From assembly GCA_049322615.1 (NCBI GenBank), contig JBMORX010000009.1:130321-194320 (forward strand): a stretch of 64,000 nt of DNA, in the 5' to 3' direction. The position numbers and the translations under genes were made by a program. The notes under the pieces are model-generated. The model searched no databases. It was not told the DNA's origin and worked only from the letters and a program-made list of their open reading frames with translations. This document shows positions 7,541 through 55,026 of the stretch, piece by piece; position 1 is the stretch's first letter; every line of letters starts with the position of its first letter. This DNA comes from Patescibacteria group bacterium (lineage in GTDB: Bacteria; Patescibacteriota; Microgenomatia; CAYGWK01).

Positions 7541-8971
7541 TTATTTATTGGTGTCTACTGGATCACTTGCGTCGGCAAGAACAGGGGCTGCACGTCTCTC
7601 AACCAGGTCCTGAGCGGTTGGGAACAGGGTAAACATGGTGTTGAGCAGAATCCCGGATAAGGCTGCAGCCGCAATGGCCGGTACTCCGCCAGGTAGAAGC
7701 GTGTCTAGCCCCGGTGGCAGTGGAACGGGGAGCGAACCTCCGTATTTGTTTCCCCCGCCGATCCCCAGGATCAAAACCACCGAGACGATCGCCACGTTCT
7801 TCGGCTCAAGTAGATCACCAGCCTCCAGGAGCATTTTGATGCCCACGATGCCAAAGGCGGCGAACATGTAGATAGCCAACCCACCGGTGACTGCTGTGGG
7901 AATTGTCTCGACCAGAGCCTCAAGATGCCCGCTGAAACCAGAGAGAATCCCAAGGATCGCAGCCGTCATCACCGCGAACACAGTCGCTGCGCCAGAGGCG
8001 ATGATTGTAGCAATTGTCTCTCCGTAGTTAGTTCCCATTGCCCCACCGAGCATGCCGGTGATCACGTCACCCAGCCCGTCACCCACGATGTTGCGCCCGA
8101 CCAGATACTCAATGTCTTCCGCCTTCTTCCCGTGTCTCTTGGCAATGTCCTTGATGGCGATTCTCACTTGGTAGAAGTGAGCCAAACTTTCTGGGATGGT
8201 TGCGATTACCACCGGAACTATGCTTAGCACCGCCGCCAACGCAGCAGGGTTCCCGAAAGCTGGGAAGACAAGATGGGGTGGACGAACCACTTCGGCGCTA
8301 AACACGGGGGCAAAGTTGACCAATCCCAGGGGAATAGCGACGAGATACCCGACAAACCCTCCCCCTAGGATGGGCAACATTCCCAGGAGGCCGCTTCTTA
8401 GACGCCAAGTCCAGAAGACGACCGCCAGGAAGGTCACAAACGCCACTGTCCACCAGGTGAGACTCGCTATTGGCTTACCGGCCTGGTCAACCAGACAGCA
8501 CATACCGCTAGCCATGTCAATAGCGGCTGAACTTAACGCGTAGGCGATGATCATCGCCACCGATCCTTGCAATCCTGCCGGCAAGACCCTTACAACCCAT
8601 TGGGGACCCATCTTAACGATCAACAGACCCACAAGAATCTGGGTGACACCGGCAACCGCAATGCCAACGAGGGCGATACTGACGCCAACATCTCCGCCTC
8701 CGTTAGCCTTGACGACCATCATCACCGCGGCAATGGCCGAGAACGAACTACCATAGTACAAAGGTACCCTGAACCTTGTGACTACTAATGCCGCCAGGGT
8801 AGCACAACCACTGGCAAACAAAGTTGCCGAGACGTTGAATCCGGTCAGGACCGGAACCAACACCGTAGCCGGGAAAATAGCCAGGAAATGCTGAAACCCT
8901 AACAACAGAGTTGGAGCAAACCCTGGCCATTCTAGCGGCAGGTAGCCACCAATGTTCTTGTTTCTTACCAT
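7541..8971 (-). CDS. NCS2-family nucleobase:cation symporter (uracil/xanthine permease)
   Basis: Polytopic with NCS2 motifs. Start set at MVRNKNIGG, which is preceded by an AAAGGAGAGG RBS. The gene is strikingly GC-rich (~58%) against ~38% in the flanks. Confidence 0.8.
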   Translation of the reverse strand: MVRNKNIGGYLPLEWPGFAPTLLLGFQHFLAIFPATVLVPVLTGFNVSATLFASGCATLAALVVTRFRVPLYYGSSFSAIAAVMMVVKANGGGDVGVSIALVGIAVAGVTQILVGLLIVKMGPQWVVRVLPAGLQGSVAMIIAYALSSAAIDMASGMCCLVDQAGKPIASLTWWTVAFVTFLAVVFWTWRLRSGLLGMLPILGGGFVGYLVAIPLGLVNFAPVFSAEVVRPPHLVFPAFGNPAALAAVLSIVPVVIATIPESLAHFYQVRIAIKDIAKRHGKKAEDIEYLVGRNIVGDGLGDVITGMLGGAMGTNYGETIATIIASGAATVFAVMTAAILGILSGFSGHLEALVETIPTAVTGGLAIYMFAAFGIVGIKMLLEAGDLLEPKNVAIVSVVLILGIGGGNKYGGSLPVPLPPGLDTLLPGGVPAIAAAALSGILLNTMFTLFPTAQDLVERRAAPVLADASDPVDTNK

Positions 8972-9169
8972 CGCTTTCCTCTCCTTTGTTAGAATACTGC
9001 CTTTTGCTTCCACCCCAAAGCAAGGGGACGTTTGACGTCCCAAGGGCAGCGGAGAAAAGCCGAAGGTAACCACCGTCTCCCTCGGCCCCTCCCTGCTGCC
9101 CTCTTGGAGTGGAAATTTTAACCTTCCAGATTGTTAAAGAGCGTCTGCTTTCCGCTTATGGAAAGCGAC

Positions 9170-18751: not shown

Positions 18752-19282
18752 TTACCTTCTGTGATACACAAAAATTGATGTCCAAGCAGGAAGTTCACGG
18801 AACGAATCTCTGATGCCTTCTGGTTTAGTAAAAGTTGCCCTGAACCTGATGCCGAAAACATCTCTACTGAATTCTATTATATGGTATTTCTCCCAGGGCC
18901 AAGTTTTTGTATCTATCCGTTTTGACTCAACATTCCAGCCCTTCTTGACCAATTTGGTTTCGTAGAAATTAATAACATCTTCTGCTGAATCTTTCGTTTC
19001 AAACCTTATGCTGGCTCCCGGAATGCCGTCTGGAAATCCACTACTAGCCTCAATTTTGTATGAAGAAGCCCCAGGGTATCGAGGAATTGAGCTCGCTACT
19101 AACCAATCAAGTTGGTGCTGAAAGAATACGATGGAAACAAAAAAGCATGTAACAAAAATTAGTCCAAGAAGGAAAACTATTAAAACAAATAGTTTCTTAA
19201 TCATGTTCTTAATCATAGAAACATTAGATTTCCACCTCGGGGGTGGAACAGCCTCGCCACCTAGGGAATTAAACCGGTACAT
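18752..19282 (-). CDS. hypothetical membrane-anchored or secreted protein
   Basis: N-terminal TM/signal-anchor (LFVLIVFLLGLIFVTCFFV), then a soluble domain. Confidence 0.4.
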   Translation of the reverse strand: MYRFNSLGGEAVPPPRWKSNVSMIKNMIKKLFVLIVFLLGLIFVTCFFVSIVFFQHQLDWLVASSIPRYPGASSYKIEASSGFPDGIPGASIRFETKDSAEDVINFYETKLVKKGWNVESKRIDTKTWPWEKYHIIEFSRDVFGIRFRATFTKPEGIRDSFRELPAWTSIFVYHRR

Positions 19283-19611
19283 CTCCAGTTAACTTGGGCG
19301 TTTTTGGTGGCAATATCTACAACACAAGCTGGAGAACACCCTTTCGCCTTGCCGAAAACAATTAGAGGGAACCACCAGGTACCAGAATAATCGTTACATT
19401 CCCAACCCAAGGGGGATATTTTGCCTTCTTTTACACAAACACTTTTGAGAGCAATTTTTAATGCTTCTTTCCTGCTCATTTTCAAATTTGTTTCTCTTTT
19501 ATAACAATAATCTGGACCAATATTTTGTTTGTAAAATTTAGAAAAAATGTATCCCAAAAAACTAATGACGATCATCAGTGTAATAATCGTAATAAGAAGT
19601 TTCTGGGACAT
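19261..19611 (-). CDS. hypothetical small secreted Cys-rich protein
   Basis: N-terminal TM (LITIITLMIVISFLGYIF) and five Cys in the C-terminal half. Confidence 0.35.
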   Translation of the reverse strand: MSQKLLITIITLMIVISFLGYIFSKFYKQNIGPDYCYKRETNLKMSRKEALKIALKSVCVKEGKISPLGWECNDYSGTWWFPLIVFGKAKGCSPACVVDIATKNAQVNWRCTGLIP

Positions 19612-25368: not shown

Positions 25369-25439
25369 GCCTTCCAAGCATTGGGGCGATGCAGAGACTT
25401 CGTAAGTCTCAGAGCGGGGTTCGACTCCCCGGGAAGGCT
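25369..25439 (+). tRNA. tRNA-Thr (CGT), atypical D-loop
   Basis: All four stems pair perfectly: GCCTTCC/GGAAGGC, GCAT/ATGC, GAGAC/GTCTC, CGGGG/CCCCG. Anticodon loop TTCGTAA. Confidence 0.6.
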
Positions 25440-25442
25440 CAG

Positions 25443-25811
25443 ATGTTCTATGTTTACATTTTAAAAAGTTTAAAAGATAATTCATATTATATTGGTAGCA
25501 CTGCCAATTTAAGGCAAAGGATAAACCAACATAACCAGGGTAAATCAAGGTATACGAAGGATAAGAAACCATGGAAGTTACTCTACTTTGAGAAATACCC
25601 AACTCGCATTGAAGCTGTAAAGAGAGAAATAAAAATTAAATCGAGGAAAAAGAGATCTTTCGTAGAAAAATTAATATGTAGCGAAAAAATCGGGACAGGG
25701 CTTTCGCCCGCCTTGACTCGCCGAAGTAGCTTAGTGGAAGAGCGGTGGTTTCGTAAACCATTGGCAGGAGTTCGATTCTCCTCTTCGGCTCAAGGTCGGC
25801 GAGGCAGGTAA
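25443..25811 (+). CDS. GIY-YIG nuclease-domain protein (short, stand-alone)
   Basis: MFYVYILKSLKDNSYYIGSTANLRQRINQHNQG...KPWKLLYFEKY is the GIY-YIG motif. The frame has no stop until 25811, so it reads through the tRNA-Thr at 25720..25790. Confidence 0.55.
   Translation: MFYVYILKSLKDNSYYIGSTANLRQRINQHNQGKSRYTKDKKPWKLLYFEKYPTRIEAVKREIKIKSRKKRSFVEKLICSEKIGTGLSPALTRRSSLVEERWFRKPLAGVRFSSSAQGRRGR
25720..25790 (+). tRNA. tRNA-Thr (CGT)
   Basis: Acceptor GCCGAAG/CTTCGGC, D-arm GCTT-AGTGGAA-GAGC, anticodon loop TTCGTAA, T-loop TTCGATT. Confidence 0.75.
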
Positions 25812-42436: not shown

Positions 42437-43182
42437 TTCGATTACACCCCAGGGGTGTTTTGCTATTTACACCTGCGGATTATTGTGATTTAATTAAATT
42501 GTGCCAGTAAGAAACATCCCTTTTGTAAACGGCGAATATTACCATGTCTTGAATCGGGGCGTTGCTCAAATACCAATCTTCGGCGGTGCCACATATTTCC
42601 ATCGATTTCTGAAATCGATGCTTTATTACCGACTCGAGGGCCCTAAACCAAGATTTTCTCTTTTCGCACCAACCACGCGTCTTTTAAATCAAGAAAAAAG
42701 AATCGTAGATATAATCTGTTACTGCTTAATGCCAAATCATTTTCATTTTCTTCTCTGCCAAAGACGCCAGGGGGGAATAACCGAATTCATCAGCAAATTA
42801 AGCAATAGTTATACAAAGTATTTTAACATTAGAAACAGAAGAATTGGACCGCTTTTCCAAGGAGAATTTAAGGCTGTTCACATAGAATCCAATGAGCAAC
42901 TTATTCATCTTTCTCGGTATATTCATCTCAATCCTTTGGTTGGCTATTTAACTGATAAATTGGAAACGTATAAATGGTCTTCCTATTCTGAATTTATAAA
43001 CCAAGGCGGCAGCAATATCTGTTCAAAGGAGATTATTCTCAACCAATTTAAATCTCCAGGCAATTATATGACATTTGTTTTAGATCAGGAAGACTACGGC
43101 AAGCAATTGGAATTAATAAAACATCAACTTATAGATTTCGAACATCCGCAGGTGCAATCGTACTACACCCCTGGGGTGTAAA
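42437..43182 (+). mobile_element. IS200/IS605-family Y1 (HuH) transposase unit of REP-associated (RAYT) type, bracketed by REP-like palindromes
   Basis: Left flank: ACACCCCAGGGGTGT-(11 bp)-ACACCTGCGG. Right flank: CCGCAGGTG-(10 bp)-ACACCCCTGGGGTGT. The two flanks are inverted copies of each other. Confidence 0.65.
42501..43181 (+). CDS. tnpA: Y1 HuH transposase (IS200-like TnpA / RAYT)
   Basis: GEYYHVLNRG, the HuH motif MPNHFHFLL and the catalytic-Tyr region SRYIHLNP. GTG start. Confidence 0.7.
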   Translation: MPVRNIPFVNGEYYHVLNRGVAQIPIFGGATYFHRFLKSMLYYRLEGPKPRFSLFAPTTRLLNQEKRIVDIICYCLMPNHFHFLLCQRRQGGITEFISKLSNSYTKYFNIRNRRIGPLFQGEFKAVHIESNEQLIHLSRYIHLNPLVGYLTDKLETYKWSSYSEFINQGGSNICSKEIILNQFKSPGNYMTFVLDQEDYGKQLELIKHQLIDFEHPQVQSYYTPGV

Positions 43183-43188
43183 CCTAGA

Positions 43189-45695: not shown

Positions 45696-46154
45696 TTAAT
45701 ATATTAATACCGGTTTATCGAATCGCAAATCGATCTCAAGCGGTATTTTTCCCTCTATTTTAGACCTTCCAAGGATAAGTTGTAAAGAGGCAACCTGGCC
45801 GCTTAAATCCTTTTCTCTGGAGAAAAAAACTTTTAGATTACCCGAAAGCGTTGCTTCAAAGGATTTATCCAGAGATTTAATCATTTCAACTTTTACCCCT
45901 GACATCTCCAGGAGATTTTTCAATTTTTCTTCCTCGGTTGGGGGAGAAACAGGACTGGCTATTTTCTCTTTTTTTGGTAGTTGAAAGTCAAAACCTAAAT
46001 TTATTTTCCTAAGTTGGACAAAAATAAGCAAAGCTTGTTGCTTCGCAATAAGCAAAGCTTGTTGCTTCGCAATAAATCCCAACAATAAAAACAGAATCAA
46101 AACGATGGGGATGACTAATTTTCTATTAGGGTTTTTTGGGCTTTGAGAGATCAT
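45696..46154 (-). CDS. FtsQ/DivIB-like small division protein (N-terminal TM), with a 24-bp tandem duplication
   Basis: Position between murG and ftsA, TM anchor, 152 aa. The duplicated CAAAGCTTGTTGCTTCGCAATAAG encodes LLIAKQQALLIAKQQA. Confidence 0.4.
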   Translation of the reverse strand: MISQSPKNPNRKLVIPIVLILFLLLGFIAKQQALLIAKQQALLIFVQLRKINLGFDFQLPKKEKIASPVSPPTEEEKLKNLLEMSGVKVEMIKSLDKSFEATLSGNLKVFFSREKDLSGQVASLQLILGRSKIEGKIPLEIDLRFDKPVLIY

Positions 46155-47254: not shown

Positions 47255-47295
47255 TTCCTTTACACCCCGGGGGTGTAACTCTACCTACACCTGGG
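47255..47295. repeat. solo REP doublet (ACACCCCGGGGGTGT ... ACACCTGGGG) between murG and ftsW
   Basis: Same palindrome family as the RAYT flanks at 42444 and 43166. Confidence 0.6.
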
Positions 47296-47299
47296 GTAT

Positions 47300-48394
47300 T
47301 TACTTCTTTTTTACCCTCTGTTTTGAGATATTAAGTAAAATTCCTATTCCTGAAAGAGCAACAACCAAAGATGAACCGCCGTAAGAAATAAAAGGTAAAG
47401 GGACGCCGGTTAAAGGGACTAAAGCCACCTGACTAGCTAGATTAACCAACGTCTGGACTCCAATCCAAGAAGTAATGCCTACGGCTAAAAGTTGACCAAA
47501 TCGATCTGGGGCTTCTTGGGAAATTTTTAAGCCCTTAAAAACTATCACCAAAAAAACAATAAGCAGAACTATTGCCCCAATAAACCCTAACTCCTCGGCA
47601 ATTATGGCAAAGATTGAGTCAGTCATTGCCTCGGGTAAATATTCGTATTTTTGCCTCGAAGCTCCCAAACCTAAACCCCAAAGTCCTCCTGCTCCCAAAG
47701 CTAAAAGAACTTGTCTGATGTGATAGCTTGCCCCTAAAGGATCACGACTAATATCTAAAAAGGTCAAAAATCGCTCTTTTCGATAATTTGAACTAAAAAT
47801 AAGAGAAAGCCCGGTTAAAATACCCAAAACCGCCATAAGGACAAGAGAGAAAAGAGGGGCGCCTGAGACAAAATAAAGAGAAAGACCAGAGGCAACCAAG
47901 ACGACGGTCGTACCTAAATCTGGCTCAAGCATTATCAAAATCGAAAGTATTCCTAGGGAAACTAAAAATGGGAGAAATTTTGGCTTTTTGGCAAAAAGGA
48001 AGGAAAGATATAAAACAAAGGTCAGTTTAGTTAGTTCTGCTGGCTGAAAGCTAAAACCAGCAAAAGTCAACCATCTTCTTGCTCCAAGAACCTTTACTCC
48101 CAAACCAGGAATAAGGACTAAAACTAAGGCAATAAAAGTCATAAACATAAGAATTGGCGCTAATTTTTCAAGTCTCCGATAGTCAAATTTTGAAGCGGCA
48201 AATAAAGCGCCCAACCCTAAAATCGCCCAAAAAATTTGTTGGCGAATATAAAAATACTTATCCCCAAAATCCCGAAAAGCCGTCACTACCGAGGCATCAT
48301 AAACCATCAAAATCCCAAAAAGAGTTAAACCGACGACAAGAAAGACTAGTAGCCGATCAATTTTTTGAGTTTGAGACTTAAGGGCAACCATCAC
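47300..48394 (-). CDS. ftsW: SEDS-family lipid II flippase/polymerase FtsW
   Basis: 10-TM SEDS protein inside the dcw cluster, upstream of murG. Confidence 0.8.
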   Translation of the reverse strand: MMVALKSQTQKIDRLLVFLVVGLTLFGILMVYDASVVTAFRDFGDKYFYIRQQIFWAILGLGALFAASKFDYRRLEKLAPILMFMTFIALVLVLIPGLGVKVLGARRWLTFAGFSFQPAELTKLTFVLYLSFLFAKKPKFLPFLVSLGILSILIMLEPDLGTTVVLVASGLSLYFVSGAPLFSLVLMAVLGILTGLSLIFSSNYRKERFLTFLDISRDPLGASYHIRQVLLALGAGGLWGLGLGASRQKYEYLPEAMTDSIFAIIAEELGFIGAIVLLIVFLVIVFKGLKISQEAPDRFGQLLAVGITSWIGVQTLVNLASQVALVPLTGVPLPFISYGGSSLVVALSGIGILLNISKQRVKKK

Positions 48395-53898: not shown

Positions 53899-53988
53899 TC
53901 TACCACAGCTTGGTTGTTACCCAAAGGGCGGTCAAGGTGTCCTACCTAGTCCACCTCTAAGGTGAATTCCTATTGACACCTCTGGTAT

Positions 53989-55026
53989 TTAATGATTTTC
54001 TAAAGCTAGACTGATTATTCTATCTAAAAGCTCTGAATAGGAGATTCCGGCGGCGGAGGCTTCTTTAGGAAATAAAGAAACAGGAGTCAAACCCGGGATC
54101 GTGTTTATCTCCAAAACGAAAGGTTTACCTTGAGAAATAATCATATCTACCCGACCAAAACCGCGACAATCAATCGCTTTAAAAACACGAATGGCTAAAT
54201 CTTGAACTTTTTTGGTCAGCTTTCGGGAAATCCGAGCGGGAACTATCTCATCGCATTTAGTTTCATCGTACTTTGCCTCATAATCAAAAAACTCTTTTTT
54301 GGGAACGATCTCAACTACCGGTAAAGCTTGAGGATTTTCATTTCCTAACACCCCACAGGTTACCTCAGTCCCAGAAAGATATTCCTCAATAATAACTCGT
54401 GGTCCGAAATTGAAAGCCTTTTTTAAAGCCTCATCTAATTCTTCTTTTCTGCGGACAATACTTACACCAACACTTGAACCCTGGGAAGAGGGTTTCACCA
54501 CCAGGGGAGTTTTAAATTTCTTCCAGATTATACTTGAATTCTCTCCTTTTTCGAAAACCAAATATTCTGGTGTAGGAATTCCTCTTTCCTCAATCACCCT
54601 TCTAAACATCGGTTTATCCATTCCCAAGGCTGAAGCCAAAACGCCCGCTCCAGTATAGGGAAGTCCGGCTAGTTCAAGCATCCCCTGAACTGTTCCATCC
54701 TCACCATATGGACCATGCATGGCAATAAAAACCACATCAGGCTTTTTTCCAAACTTAAGCGGAAGATTCCTGCCTTGAGGTAAAAGCGCTTTCCCGCCCC
54801 TAATTCTTCTCTTATGGTCAGTCTTCTCCACCCTTGAAGGGGAATGGAGCAAAATTTCTCTTTGGTCTTTAAGCTGCCATCTTTCTCCATCCCGAGAAAT
54901 CAAAACAGGCAAAATTTCATATTTTTTCTTATCTAAATTTCTAACCACTTCCCTGCCTGTGACGAGTGAGACCTCATGTTTTGGACTCCGACCTCCCATC
55001 AAGACGACGACTTTAATTTTTTTCAT
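53989..55026 (-). CDS. ddl: D-alanine--D-alanine ligase
   Basis: ATP-grasp Ddl N-terminus (KIKVVVLMGGRSPKHEVSL) and C-terminal EINTIPGLT. Confidence 0.9.
   Translation of the reverse strand: MKKIKVVVLMGGRSPKHEVSLVTGREVVRNLDKKKYEILPVLISRDGERWQLKDQREILLHSPSRVEKTDHKRRIRGGKALLPQGRNLPLKFGKKPDVVFIAMHGPYGEDGTVQGMLELAGLPYTGAGVLASALGMDKPMFRRVIEERGIPTPEYLVFEKGENSSIIWKKFKTPLVVKPSSQGSSVGVSIVRRKEELDEALKKAFNFGPRVIIEEYLSGTEVTCGVLGNENPQALPVVEIVPKKEFFDYEAKYDETKCDEIVPARISRKLTKKVQDLAIRVFKAIDCRGFGRVDMIISQGKPFVLEINTIPGLTPVSLFPKEASAAGISYSELLDRIISLALENH

Follow-up and report, generated by a model that had tools for sequence, protein, structure and literature searches.

A RAYT-like Y1 nuclease gene beside ftsZ in a Patescibacteria genome and the short hairpin-and-tail module that accompanies it

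The window analysed here, a 64,000-nt stretch of a Patescibacteria group bacterium (contig JBMORX010000009.1, positions 130,321 to 194,320), carries on its plus strand a gene for a Y1 (HUH) nuclease (42501..43181), which starts with GTG and encodes 226 aa with a helical C-terminal region at around residues 150-212. The gene is bracketed by two copies of a module of ~40 nt, which consists of a 15-nt GC-rich palindrome (ACACCCCNGGGGTGT), a spacer of ~10 nt, and a tail (ACACCTGCGG). The original prediction, made from the letters alone, had described a transposase resembling the tyrosine transposases associated with repetitive extragenic palindromes (REPs), known as RAYTs, at 42437-43182 and a solo REP doublet at 47255..47295; all the elements that it claimed are present, lying one base to the left of where it had put them. 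The left module (42440..42481, plus strand, 54.7 bits in a covariance-model scan) holds the palindrome ACACCCCAGGGGTGT at 42444-42458, a T-rich 10-nt spacer, and the tail ACACCTGCGG at 42469-42478. The right module (43143..43183, minus strand, 48.8 bits) is inverted, with the tail CCGCAGGTG at 43146-43154 followed after 10 nt by the palindrome ACACCCCTGGGGTGT at 43165-43179. The inverted ends proposed for the gene are thereby borne out, the right one lying inside the open reading frame (ORF), where it covers the last 12 codons and the stop codon and encodes ...HPQVQSYYTPGV. The C-termini of homologues read ...PQVQSYYTPGV or ...YPQV.

Modules aligned from the window, its paralogue, orthologues, and distant homologues share three parts: a GC-rich hairpin of 6-9 bp, whose core CACC[C/T]..[A/G]GGTG is often lengthened by 1-3 pairs; 8-11 nt of spacer; and a tail of the type (TTG/TTT)(A/C)CACCT..GG, conserved as (TTG/TTT)ACACCTGCGG. 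Some units are 'full' in that a tail-like arm stands on both sides, as at 53934-53988 in the window and at the left end of locus L002, and these fold as nested hairpins. By strict criteria, 27 of 94 family genes have one and the same palindrome on either side, and the palindromes are lineage-specific, that of the Beckwithbacteria sequence CP011210.1 being ATCACACACCCGGTGTGTGAT. Within the clade of the window, inversion puts the tail of the right module next to the gene, while in L004, L006, L010, and L014 it is a direct repeat of the left one. The left module is kept in the orthologous loci L083, L084, L085, and L092, and the sequence farther upstream is not. L083 carries two tandem modules of the left type (1566-1607 and 1667-1708, ~100 nt apart), the distal of which matches the spacer, tail, and 3' flank of the window exactly (TTTGCTATTTACACCTGCGGATTATT), suggesting duplication or turnover of modules at the left end.

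The pairing of the stem is preserved through compensatory changes between lineages. Pair 10-14 is C-G in 34 modules, U-A in 12, and unpaired in none, while for pair 5-19 the counts are 17 A-U and 15 C-G, and the covariation score exceeds those of 500/500 shuffles and all slid controls; the alignment was gathered by a pattern that fixes four core pairs, leaving the outer and inner pairs as the informative ones. An Rfam gathering scan returned tRNAs only and thus no known RNA family for the module. A reading of the tail as a strict third copy of a hairpin arm was rejected, as it scored barely better than permuted arms (0.616 versus 0.575 +/- 0.013), and a conserved (TTG)ACACCT..GG box, with a -35 element inside it, is the more apt description of the tail.

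This -35 element belongs to a putative promoter of the Y1 gene at 42466..42494 (plus strand), predicted from TTTACA at 42466-42471, a 17-nt spacer, and TTTAAT at 42489-42494, with a TGn-extended -10 (TG at 42486-42487). The predicted -10 ends 6 nt before the GTG, which suggests that a leaderless-type transcript may begin at GTG 42501. A generic promoter scan did not call the site in the window, the second base of its -10 being T. In the family, a -35/-10 pair (TTGACA/TTTACA, 16-18 nt, TAnnnT-type), counted at a score of at least 9 of 12, is present in 45 of 56 distinct upstream regions (shuffles: mean 6.6, maximum 14). The -10 stops 6-9 nt short of the start codon in 39 of these 45, and in most members 39-45 nt separate the end of the hairpin from the start codon. 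The composite left end of the original prediction therefore has both of its parts, yet the ACACCTGCGG half would at the same time be the -35 region of the predicted promoter, with the hairpin directly upstream of it. The left hairpin was also flagged by a scan for intrinsic terminators, a role that was rejected as no plus-strand gene ends there.

Three further modules lie in the window away from the Y1 gene. The palindrome, with up to two mismatches, occurs three times in the 64 kb (0.07 expected from shuffles, with 0/100 reaching three), and a looser hairpin-plus-tail pattern gives six matches against 0.14 expected. An unfiltered covariance-model scan across all 64 kb recovered exactly five full-length modules, with scores of 38-55 bits, and the next match, an unrelated one, reached 6.3; all five were in the training set of the model, and their scores are partly so by construction. 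The first solo module (47258..47299, plus strand, 46.5 bits) occupies the spacer between murG and ftsW, with the palindrome ACACCCCGGGGGTGT at 47262-47276, 10 nt, and the tail ACACCTGGGG at 47287-47296, and 3 nt separate its end from the stop codon of ftsW; the murG/ftsW spacer measures 76 nt in the window versus 4 nt in the relative L084. It belongs to the same palindrome family as the flanking copies, as had been claimed, and is a single hairpin-plus-tail module rather than a REP doublet or REPIN. The second, in the spacer between ddl and murF, is a diverged 'full' unit (53934..53988, module 53947-53988, plus strand, 45.1 bits) reading GGTGT, N10, CCACCTCTAAGGTGA, N10, ACACCTCTGG; it folds as a nested hairpin of -8 kcal/mol, ends 3 nt from the ddl stop codon, and is most like the Y1-flanking modules of the other lineages L032 and L033. 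The third, also diverged (19228..19269, plus strand, 38.2 bits; TTCCACCTCGGGGGTGGAA, N8, CCACCTAGGG), is closest to the module type of L005, and its tail holds the stop codon of a minus-strand ORF (19261-19611). All three have the same orientation, and each abuts or overlaps a minus-strand stop codon (47296-47302, 53985-53991, and 19257-19266), which suggests either a favoured insertion context or a stop codon supplied by the module. Two of the three also share the 3' flank GGTATTTA. Reading the solo modules as terminators was rejected, the T-run being missing in most.

Dispersal is seen beyond the window as well. In 1.21 Mb around homologues, the covariance model gave 78 matches (E<=0.001), 47 of them full-length at >=30 bits, and about 14 module sites lie far from any Y1 gene; a stricter, palindrome-based count found 22 solo modules in 429 kb around family genes. 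A metagenome scan with ACACCCCNGGGGTGT-N8-12-CACCTG returned 20 loci, 14 of which can be taken as true modules because they run on to CGG and so complete the tail CACCTGCGG, which the pattern did not ask for. Five of these 14 stand next to a Y1 gene, and the other nine (seven distinct) do not and are intergenic. Some solo modules nearly copy the flanking module of their own locus, with identities of 95% in L009 (L009:16307 versus the left module) and 86% in L028 and L033. One copy lies in frame within uvrA, in the linker between the two ABC modules (L002:4693-4733, 45.8 bits, ..FRRCEAVSPQGC..), and the encoded UvrA has 9 extra residues at the module compared with Bacillus UvrA (2R6F). Finally, 12 of 13 singlet solo modules read from hairpin to tail on the C-rich strand as judged by GC skew, a bias suggestive of strand-specific insertion, although the sites are non-independent and the bias is confounded with gene orientation.

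The protein encoded between the modules displays the motifs NHFH (residues 79-82, with H80 and H82), LFQG, RYIHLNP with the catalytic Y140, and WSSY. Residues H80, H82, Q120, G121, R139, Y140, N144, P145, and S161 are invariant and W159 and S160 nearly so, and the HuH pair and catalytic tyrosine are kept in 50/50 homologues compared, from which it is argued that the nuclease chemistry is retained. The HuH and YIHLNP motifs named in the original prediction are among these invariant parts, and the check that it had proposed against the Pfam transposase family gave a Y1_Tnp match of 28.3 bits (cut-off 23). The N-terminal motif MPxRxxPFVNGEYYH is conserved across the family and requires the GTG at 42501; because of this, the start in the deposited NCBI protein (P0001, 187 aa), which begins at Met40, seems too late, and the annotation appears shortened at its N-terminus (window 42501-42618 affected).

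The family is large. Among 8,000 scored candidates from a search of 5.8 billion proteins, at least 7,978 are significant homologues; the matches listed are typically 215 aa long, show 61-83% identity, and, where named, come from Levybacteria and other Patescibacteria. Family proteins measure 215-226 aa and make up more than 7,900 protein clusters, and at least 556 loci were confirmed in GTDB species representatives, those listed being overwhelmingly labelled as, or likely to be, members of the candidate phyla radiation (CPR). The occurrence in a streamlined low-GC genome had been put forward as notable; genes of this type are not rare in such genomes, the family being very common in Patescibacteria. 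The dispersal of the repeat into the dcw (division and cell wall) cluster stands.

Class 2 (RAYT-type) TnpA-Y1 proteins are distinguished by a Y---NP motif from IS200 transposases with Y---Q (PMC6006769), and the Y1 protein of the window is not an IS200 transposase. Subclass 2.1 is defined by NH[YF]H, FQ, Y[IV]HLNP, and SS in proteins of >200 aa, ~238 aa being usual (PMC6006769 Table 1); it corresponds to RAYT Group 1 (PMC5581495) and largely to the TIRYTs (PMC3733652). It is the largest RAYT group. Judged by its motifs, the protein carries the signature of subclass 2.1, Group 1, and TIRYT, which answers the comparison with RAYT group definitions that had been called for. The AlphaFold model of the 226-aa protein (pLDDT 81) has as its top Foldseek match in the PDB 4ER8, E. 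coli TnpA-REP with a REP hairpin (E 2.3e-6, TM(target) 0.64), the IS608 and ISDra2 transposases following at ~1e-3 (best IS608 match 6.7e-4). The sole NCBIfam match is likewise REP_Tyr_transpos (NF047646, an equivalog), at 46.3 bits, below the cut-off of 80. With this sub-threshold score, no GT[AG]G foot on the hairpins, and a low copy number, the protein is RAYT-like rather than a canonical RAYT. The C-terminus of the model comprises four helices, with the last 60 residues helical, and may hold a divergent helix-turn-helix (HTH). A Pfam search of residues 146-226 in three members gave no match to Bac_DnaA_C, HTH_23, or HTH_28 at E<=10, and Pfam, PHROGs, and profile-versus-PDB searches returned nothing that identifies the C-terminal domain. 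A tblastn search of plasmids found distant 'transposase' matches only (24-35% identity), of no help in assigning the subclass.

Orthologues 72-82% identical to the Y1 protein occur in the three closest relatives with usable context (L083, L084, and L085), where ftsZ, convergent with the gene, and then ftsA again come next to it and the upstream neighbour varies. Synonymous divergence (dS) between these orthologues is saturated and nonsynonymous divergence (dN) is 0.10-0.19, similar to that of ftsZ (0.12-0.24), and the Y1 gene is under strong purifying selection. The linkage is specific to the clade rather than family-wide, since ftsZ lies within 10 kb of the gene in 0/80 GTDB loci (identity <=67%). 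A paralogue (P0043, 67% identical) from the same sequencing run, SRR32167786, lies at L002:1418-2068 between a uvrB-like gene and the uvrA described above, accompanied by modules of its own and probably on the same 201,931-bp NCBI contig as the window. Paralogues are 33-67% identical and never near-identical, and two family genes that share a 20-kb locus differ in their flanking palindromes and show 33-49% identity to the query. The conserved ftsZ synteny, the saturated dS, and the divergent paralogues together argue that the gene is not hopping; it is vertically inherited and domesticated, fixed beside ftsZ in the clade, and does not behave as an active insertion sequence (IS).

These observations are probably best explained by a locus of the REPtron or TIRtron type, in which a domesticated class-2 Y1 (HUH) single-stranded DNA endonuclease is paired with a cognate short repeat that it would recognise, cleave, and occasionally copy. 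Established here are the class and fold of the protein, the synteny of its gene and the purifying selection on it, the anatomy of the module with its compensatory stem changes and its differences between lineages, and the solo and intragenic copies, while binding, cleavage, mobilisation, autoregulation, and any effect on dcw mRNAs are modelled on the paradigms of E. coli TnpA-REP and IS608. By analogy with these, the protein would recognise the hairpin in DNA made single-stranded at the replication fork and would cleave near the tail through Tyr140, with the metal held by the HuH pair, the tail some 10 nt away serving as cleavage or guide site. The module could now and then be copied or moved to new sites, mostly in short intergenic spacers, immediately behind a stop codon, but at times within a gene and in its reading frame, while the gene itself would stay put. 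As the hairpin lies directly upstream of the -35 box, binding at the left module might also repress the protein's own synthesis. Within the dcw operon, a copy directly behind a stop codon would end up in the mRNA as a 3' hairpin and might alter its decay, an effect that is known for the REPs of E. coli. It could further be speculated, as an unlikely extension, that ultra-small CPR genomes keep long-lived RAYT/repeat pairs, dS between orthologues being saturated, in which the hairpin and -35 box form a mobile, portable operator or promoter half, with the enzyme regulating itself and the copies, placed behind stop codons in dcw and repair operons and sometimes in frame, tuning the expression or mRNA stability of division and repair genes.

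Several observations weigh against a locus of this type. The hairpins are short and marginal as single-stranded DNA (~-5 kcal/mol, z ~-1), and a perfect palindrome would suit a dimer bound to duplex DNA just as well. The 5' feet of the hairpins in the window read gattACACC, tactACACC, and ctttACACC and lack the GT[AG]G foot; the reverse complement of the right end has a single GTAG, which is due to chance. Nor is the right end inverted throughout the family, given its direct orientation in the four loci named above. Left and right flanking modules carry different 10-nt spacers, and the three ACACCCC-type copies of the window likewise differ in theirs, the solo being 71% identical to the flanking modules, so that any copying among them must be old. 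The two remaining solo modules of the window are closer to those of other Y1 lineages than to the local one, and the window encodes no cognate enzyme for them, if one exists, a pattern expected if the genome has or had several enzyme/repeat pairs. Module density is low (0.35-0.5 per 10 kb around homologues, which extrapolates to tens per 1-Mb genome), and the figures for dispersal come from the 64 kb of the window and from segments no longer than ~20 kb around homologues. Finally, the orientation bias could follow selection relative to transcription rather than replication.

Among the alternatives, the module might be a regulatory element of duplex DNA or RNA (an operator, or a 3' stabiliser or attenuator) whose copies arose by ordinary mutation and recombination, with the Y1 protein acting as a regulator or in another role on single-stranded DNA. 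The near-constant distance between hairpin and start codon, the -35 box within the tail, the stop codons met by 3/3 solo modules in the window, and the terminator-like call for the left hairpin and its T-rich spacer all agree with such an element, as does the report of subclass 2.1 proteins with C-terminal HTH-like domains for which no REPs were found (PMC6006769). Yet independent origin cannot give modules of ~40 nt that are 86-95% identical at unlinked sites of one genome, nor can it account for modules in metagenome contigs with unrelated flanks or for the in-frame copy in uvrA. The HuH pair and tyrosine, invariant in 50 homologues, point to kept nuclease chemistry, and no HTH was detected in the C-terminal region. 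As a full explanation this is considered improbable, although a regulatory role is compatible with mobility.

Less probable still is an autonomous element of the IS200/IS605 type, in which the palindromes would be subterminal end hairpins, the whole 0.75-kb unit would transpose, and the solo modules would be decayed ends or end-derived miniature inverted-repeat transposable elements (PATE-like). The Y1_Tnp domain is present, a hairpin stands at each end with a promoter in the left one as in IS200-type elements, several homologues sometimes occur within 20 kb, and Group 1 is the most IS-like of the RAYT groups (PMC5581495). Against this, the protein has Y---NP instead of Y---Q and, at 215-226 aa with a C-terminal domain, exceeds the ~150 aa of IS200/IS605 transposases (PMC6006769 Table 1), and no tnpB was found among the genes neighbouring the Y1 gene. 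The ends are inverted here, whereas IS200/IS605 elements need both hairpins on one strand. The gene keeps its position beside ftsZ in four assemblies despite saturated synonymous sites, none of its paralogues is near-identical, and modules outnumber genes in the metagenome scan. The original prediction had named an ordinary IS200 TnpA with IS-specific hairpins and without dispersal as the outcome that would overturn it; the Y---NP motif, the fold closest to TnpA-REP, the ftsZ synteny, the divergent paralogues, and the modules away from any Y1 gene contradict that outcome on every count. A chance similarity in a small sample or an assembly artefact, conceivable with just five copies in 64 kb of a metagenome-assembled source, can practically be set aside in view of the 3 and 6 matches observed against 0.07 and 0.14 expected, an independent Logan contig 100% identical over 6.3 kb, and the same architecture in dozens of unrelated assemblies.

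Compared with known systems, the proposed pairing of a Y1 nuclease with its repeat is close to the TIRYT/TIRtron systems of subclass 2.1. The motifs NH[YF]H, FQ, Y[IV]HLNP, and SS in the proximal tail, a length of >200 aa with a C-terminal extension, and about two divergent gene copies per genome are shared, as are flanking inverted repeats that are at times partly self-complementary and may overlap the 3' end of the gene, the 'moderately abundant' number of repeats, and the intragenic copies reported in repair genes. The phylum differs, no Bac_DnaA_C or HTH domain is detectable by Pfam here, and the terminal inverted repeat (TIR) motif GGGGWSAS is unmatched, the 3' arm reading GGGGTGT(A/T) or GGGGTGGA with the mismatch at positions 7-8. 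The repeat is here a defined hairpin-spacer-tail module with a -35 box in its tail. Other TIRYTs carry unrelated TIRs (PMC3733652). Subclass 2.1 has been reported to be without REP-like sequences (PMC6006769), a report that this CPR clade, subclass-2.1-like and accompanied by repeats, does not fit.

With E. coli TnpA-REP (Group 2, subclass 2.2), the top structural match, the protein shares the class-2 Y---NP motif, and in both cases the gene is present once or in few copies, is inherited vertically, and stands between cognate palindromes in inverted orientation (a REPtron). As with E. coli REPs and the larger BIMEs (bacterial interspersed mosaic elements), palindromes are dispersed in short intergenic regions after genes, and enzyme and repeat co-vary by lineage. 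However, sequence identity is 12%, the NCBIfam equivalog score is below its cut-off, E. coli has DHLH and WE where NHFH and FQ stand here, and the modules lack a GTAG foot and a bulged long stem, number tens per Mb at most, and form no REPIN doublets at most sites. The TnpA of IS200/IS605 elements (IS608, ISDra2) has the HUH/Y1 fold in common with the Y1 protein, and its hairpin-dependent recognition of single-stranded DNA with a linear motif 10-20 nt away serves as the model for the module tail; use of the lagging-strand template would likewise lead one to expect an orientation bias. The Y---Q motif, the core-only protein of ~150 aa, near-identical multicopy elements, end hairpins on one strand, and tnpB were not found here. 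Rickettsia palindromic elements (RPEs) are in-frame palindromic insertions of 100-150 bp in genes, with no known dedicated enzyme. The module in frame in the uvrA linker and the one that forms the C-terminal tail of the Y1 protein resemble RPEs and intragenic REPs (Di Nocera 2013), with the difference that one clear intragenic case was seen here, outside the window.

To our knowledge, RAYTs and REPs have been characterised almost entirely in Proteobacteria, with some work in Cyanobacteria and Bacteroidetes. In full-text searches of the literature, no paper was found that connects RAYTs or REP elements to the CPR, apart from a KEGG annotation mentioned in passing, and two large RAYT classifications do not mention candidate phyla or Patescibacteria. 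What is new is a CPR-wide, subclass-2.1-like RAYT clade with its own module, a defined substrate, and a promoter within the module; the principle is already known, and the result carries an established system a modest step further, into ultra-small genomes. It offers a sequence-defined substrate of ~40 nt for testing the function of Group 1 enzymes, and it shows that repeats of this kind are tolerated, and possibly put to use, within essential operons even in genomes of 1 Mb. The practical effects are modest, as gene callers shorten the Y1 gene and modules can extend or interrupt ORFs. If the module were indeed a portable operator, the 'nested replicator' idea of REPINs and RAYTs would reach the most streamlined bacteria and gain a regulatory mechanism.

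Upstream of the Y1 gene lie ileS and a small HTH gene, and downstream, on the minus strand, follow ftsZ, ftsA, an ftsQ-like ORF, murG, and ftsW; Pfam matches confirm murG, ftsW, a Mur ligase gene, and ddl, as well as FtsZ and FtsA. The Y1 gene is among the few plus-strand genes of the window. The cumulative GC skew falls monotonically over positions 1-64000 and the minus strand holds most genes, from which it follows that the whole window lies within one replichore. The ftsQ-like ORF (45696-46154, minus strand) contains an in-frame tandem duplication at ~46023-46075 (..IAKQQALLIAKQQALL..); the Logan contig shows it too, as a self-match of 29 nt at its end, where the assembly breaks off. The ORF at 7541-9073 (minus strand) encodes a permease-like membrane protein of 510 aa and lies in a stretch of 48-55% GC compared with 41% for the window, with GC-rich palindromes at 8543, 8840, 9025, and 9181, and this stretch may have been horizontally acquired. 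ARAGORN places two tRNA-Thr(CGT) genes 280 nt apart in a tRNA cluster (25369-25440 and 25720-25791), of which the second alone reaches the Rfam tRNA gathering score.

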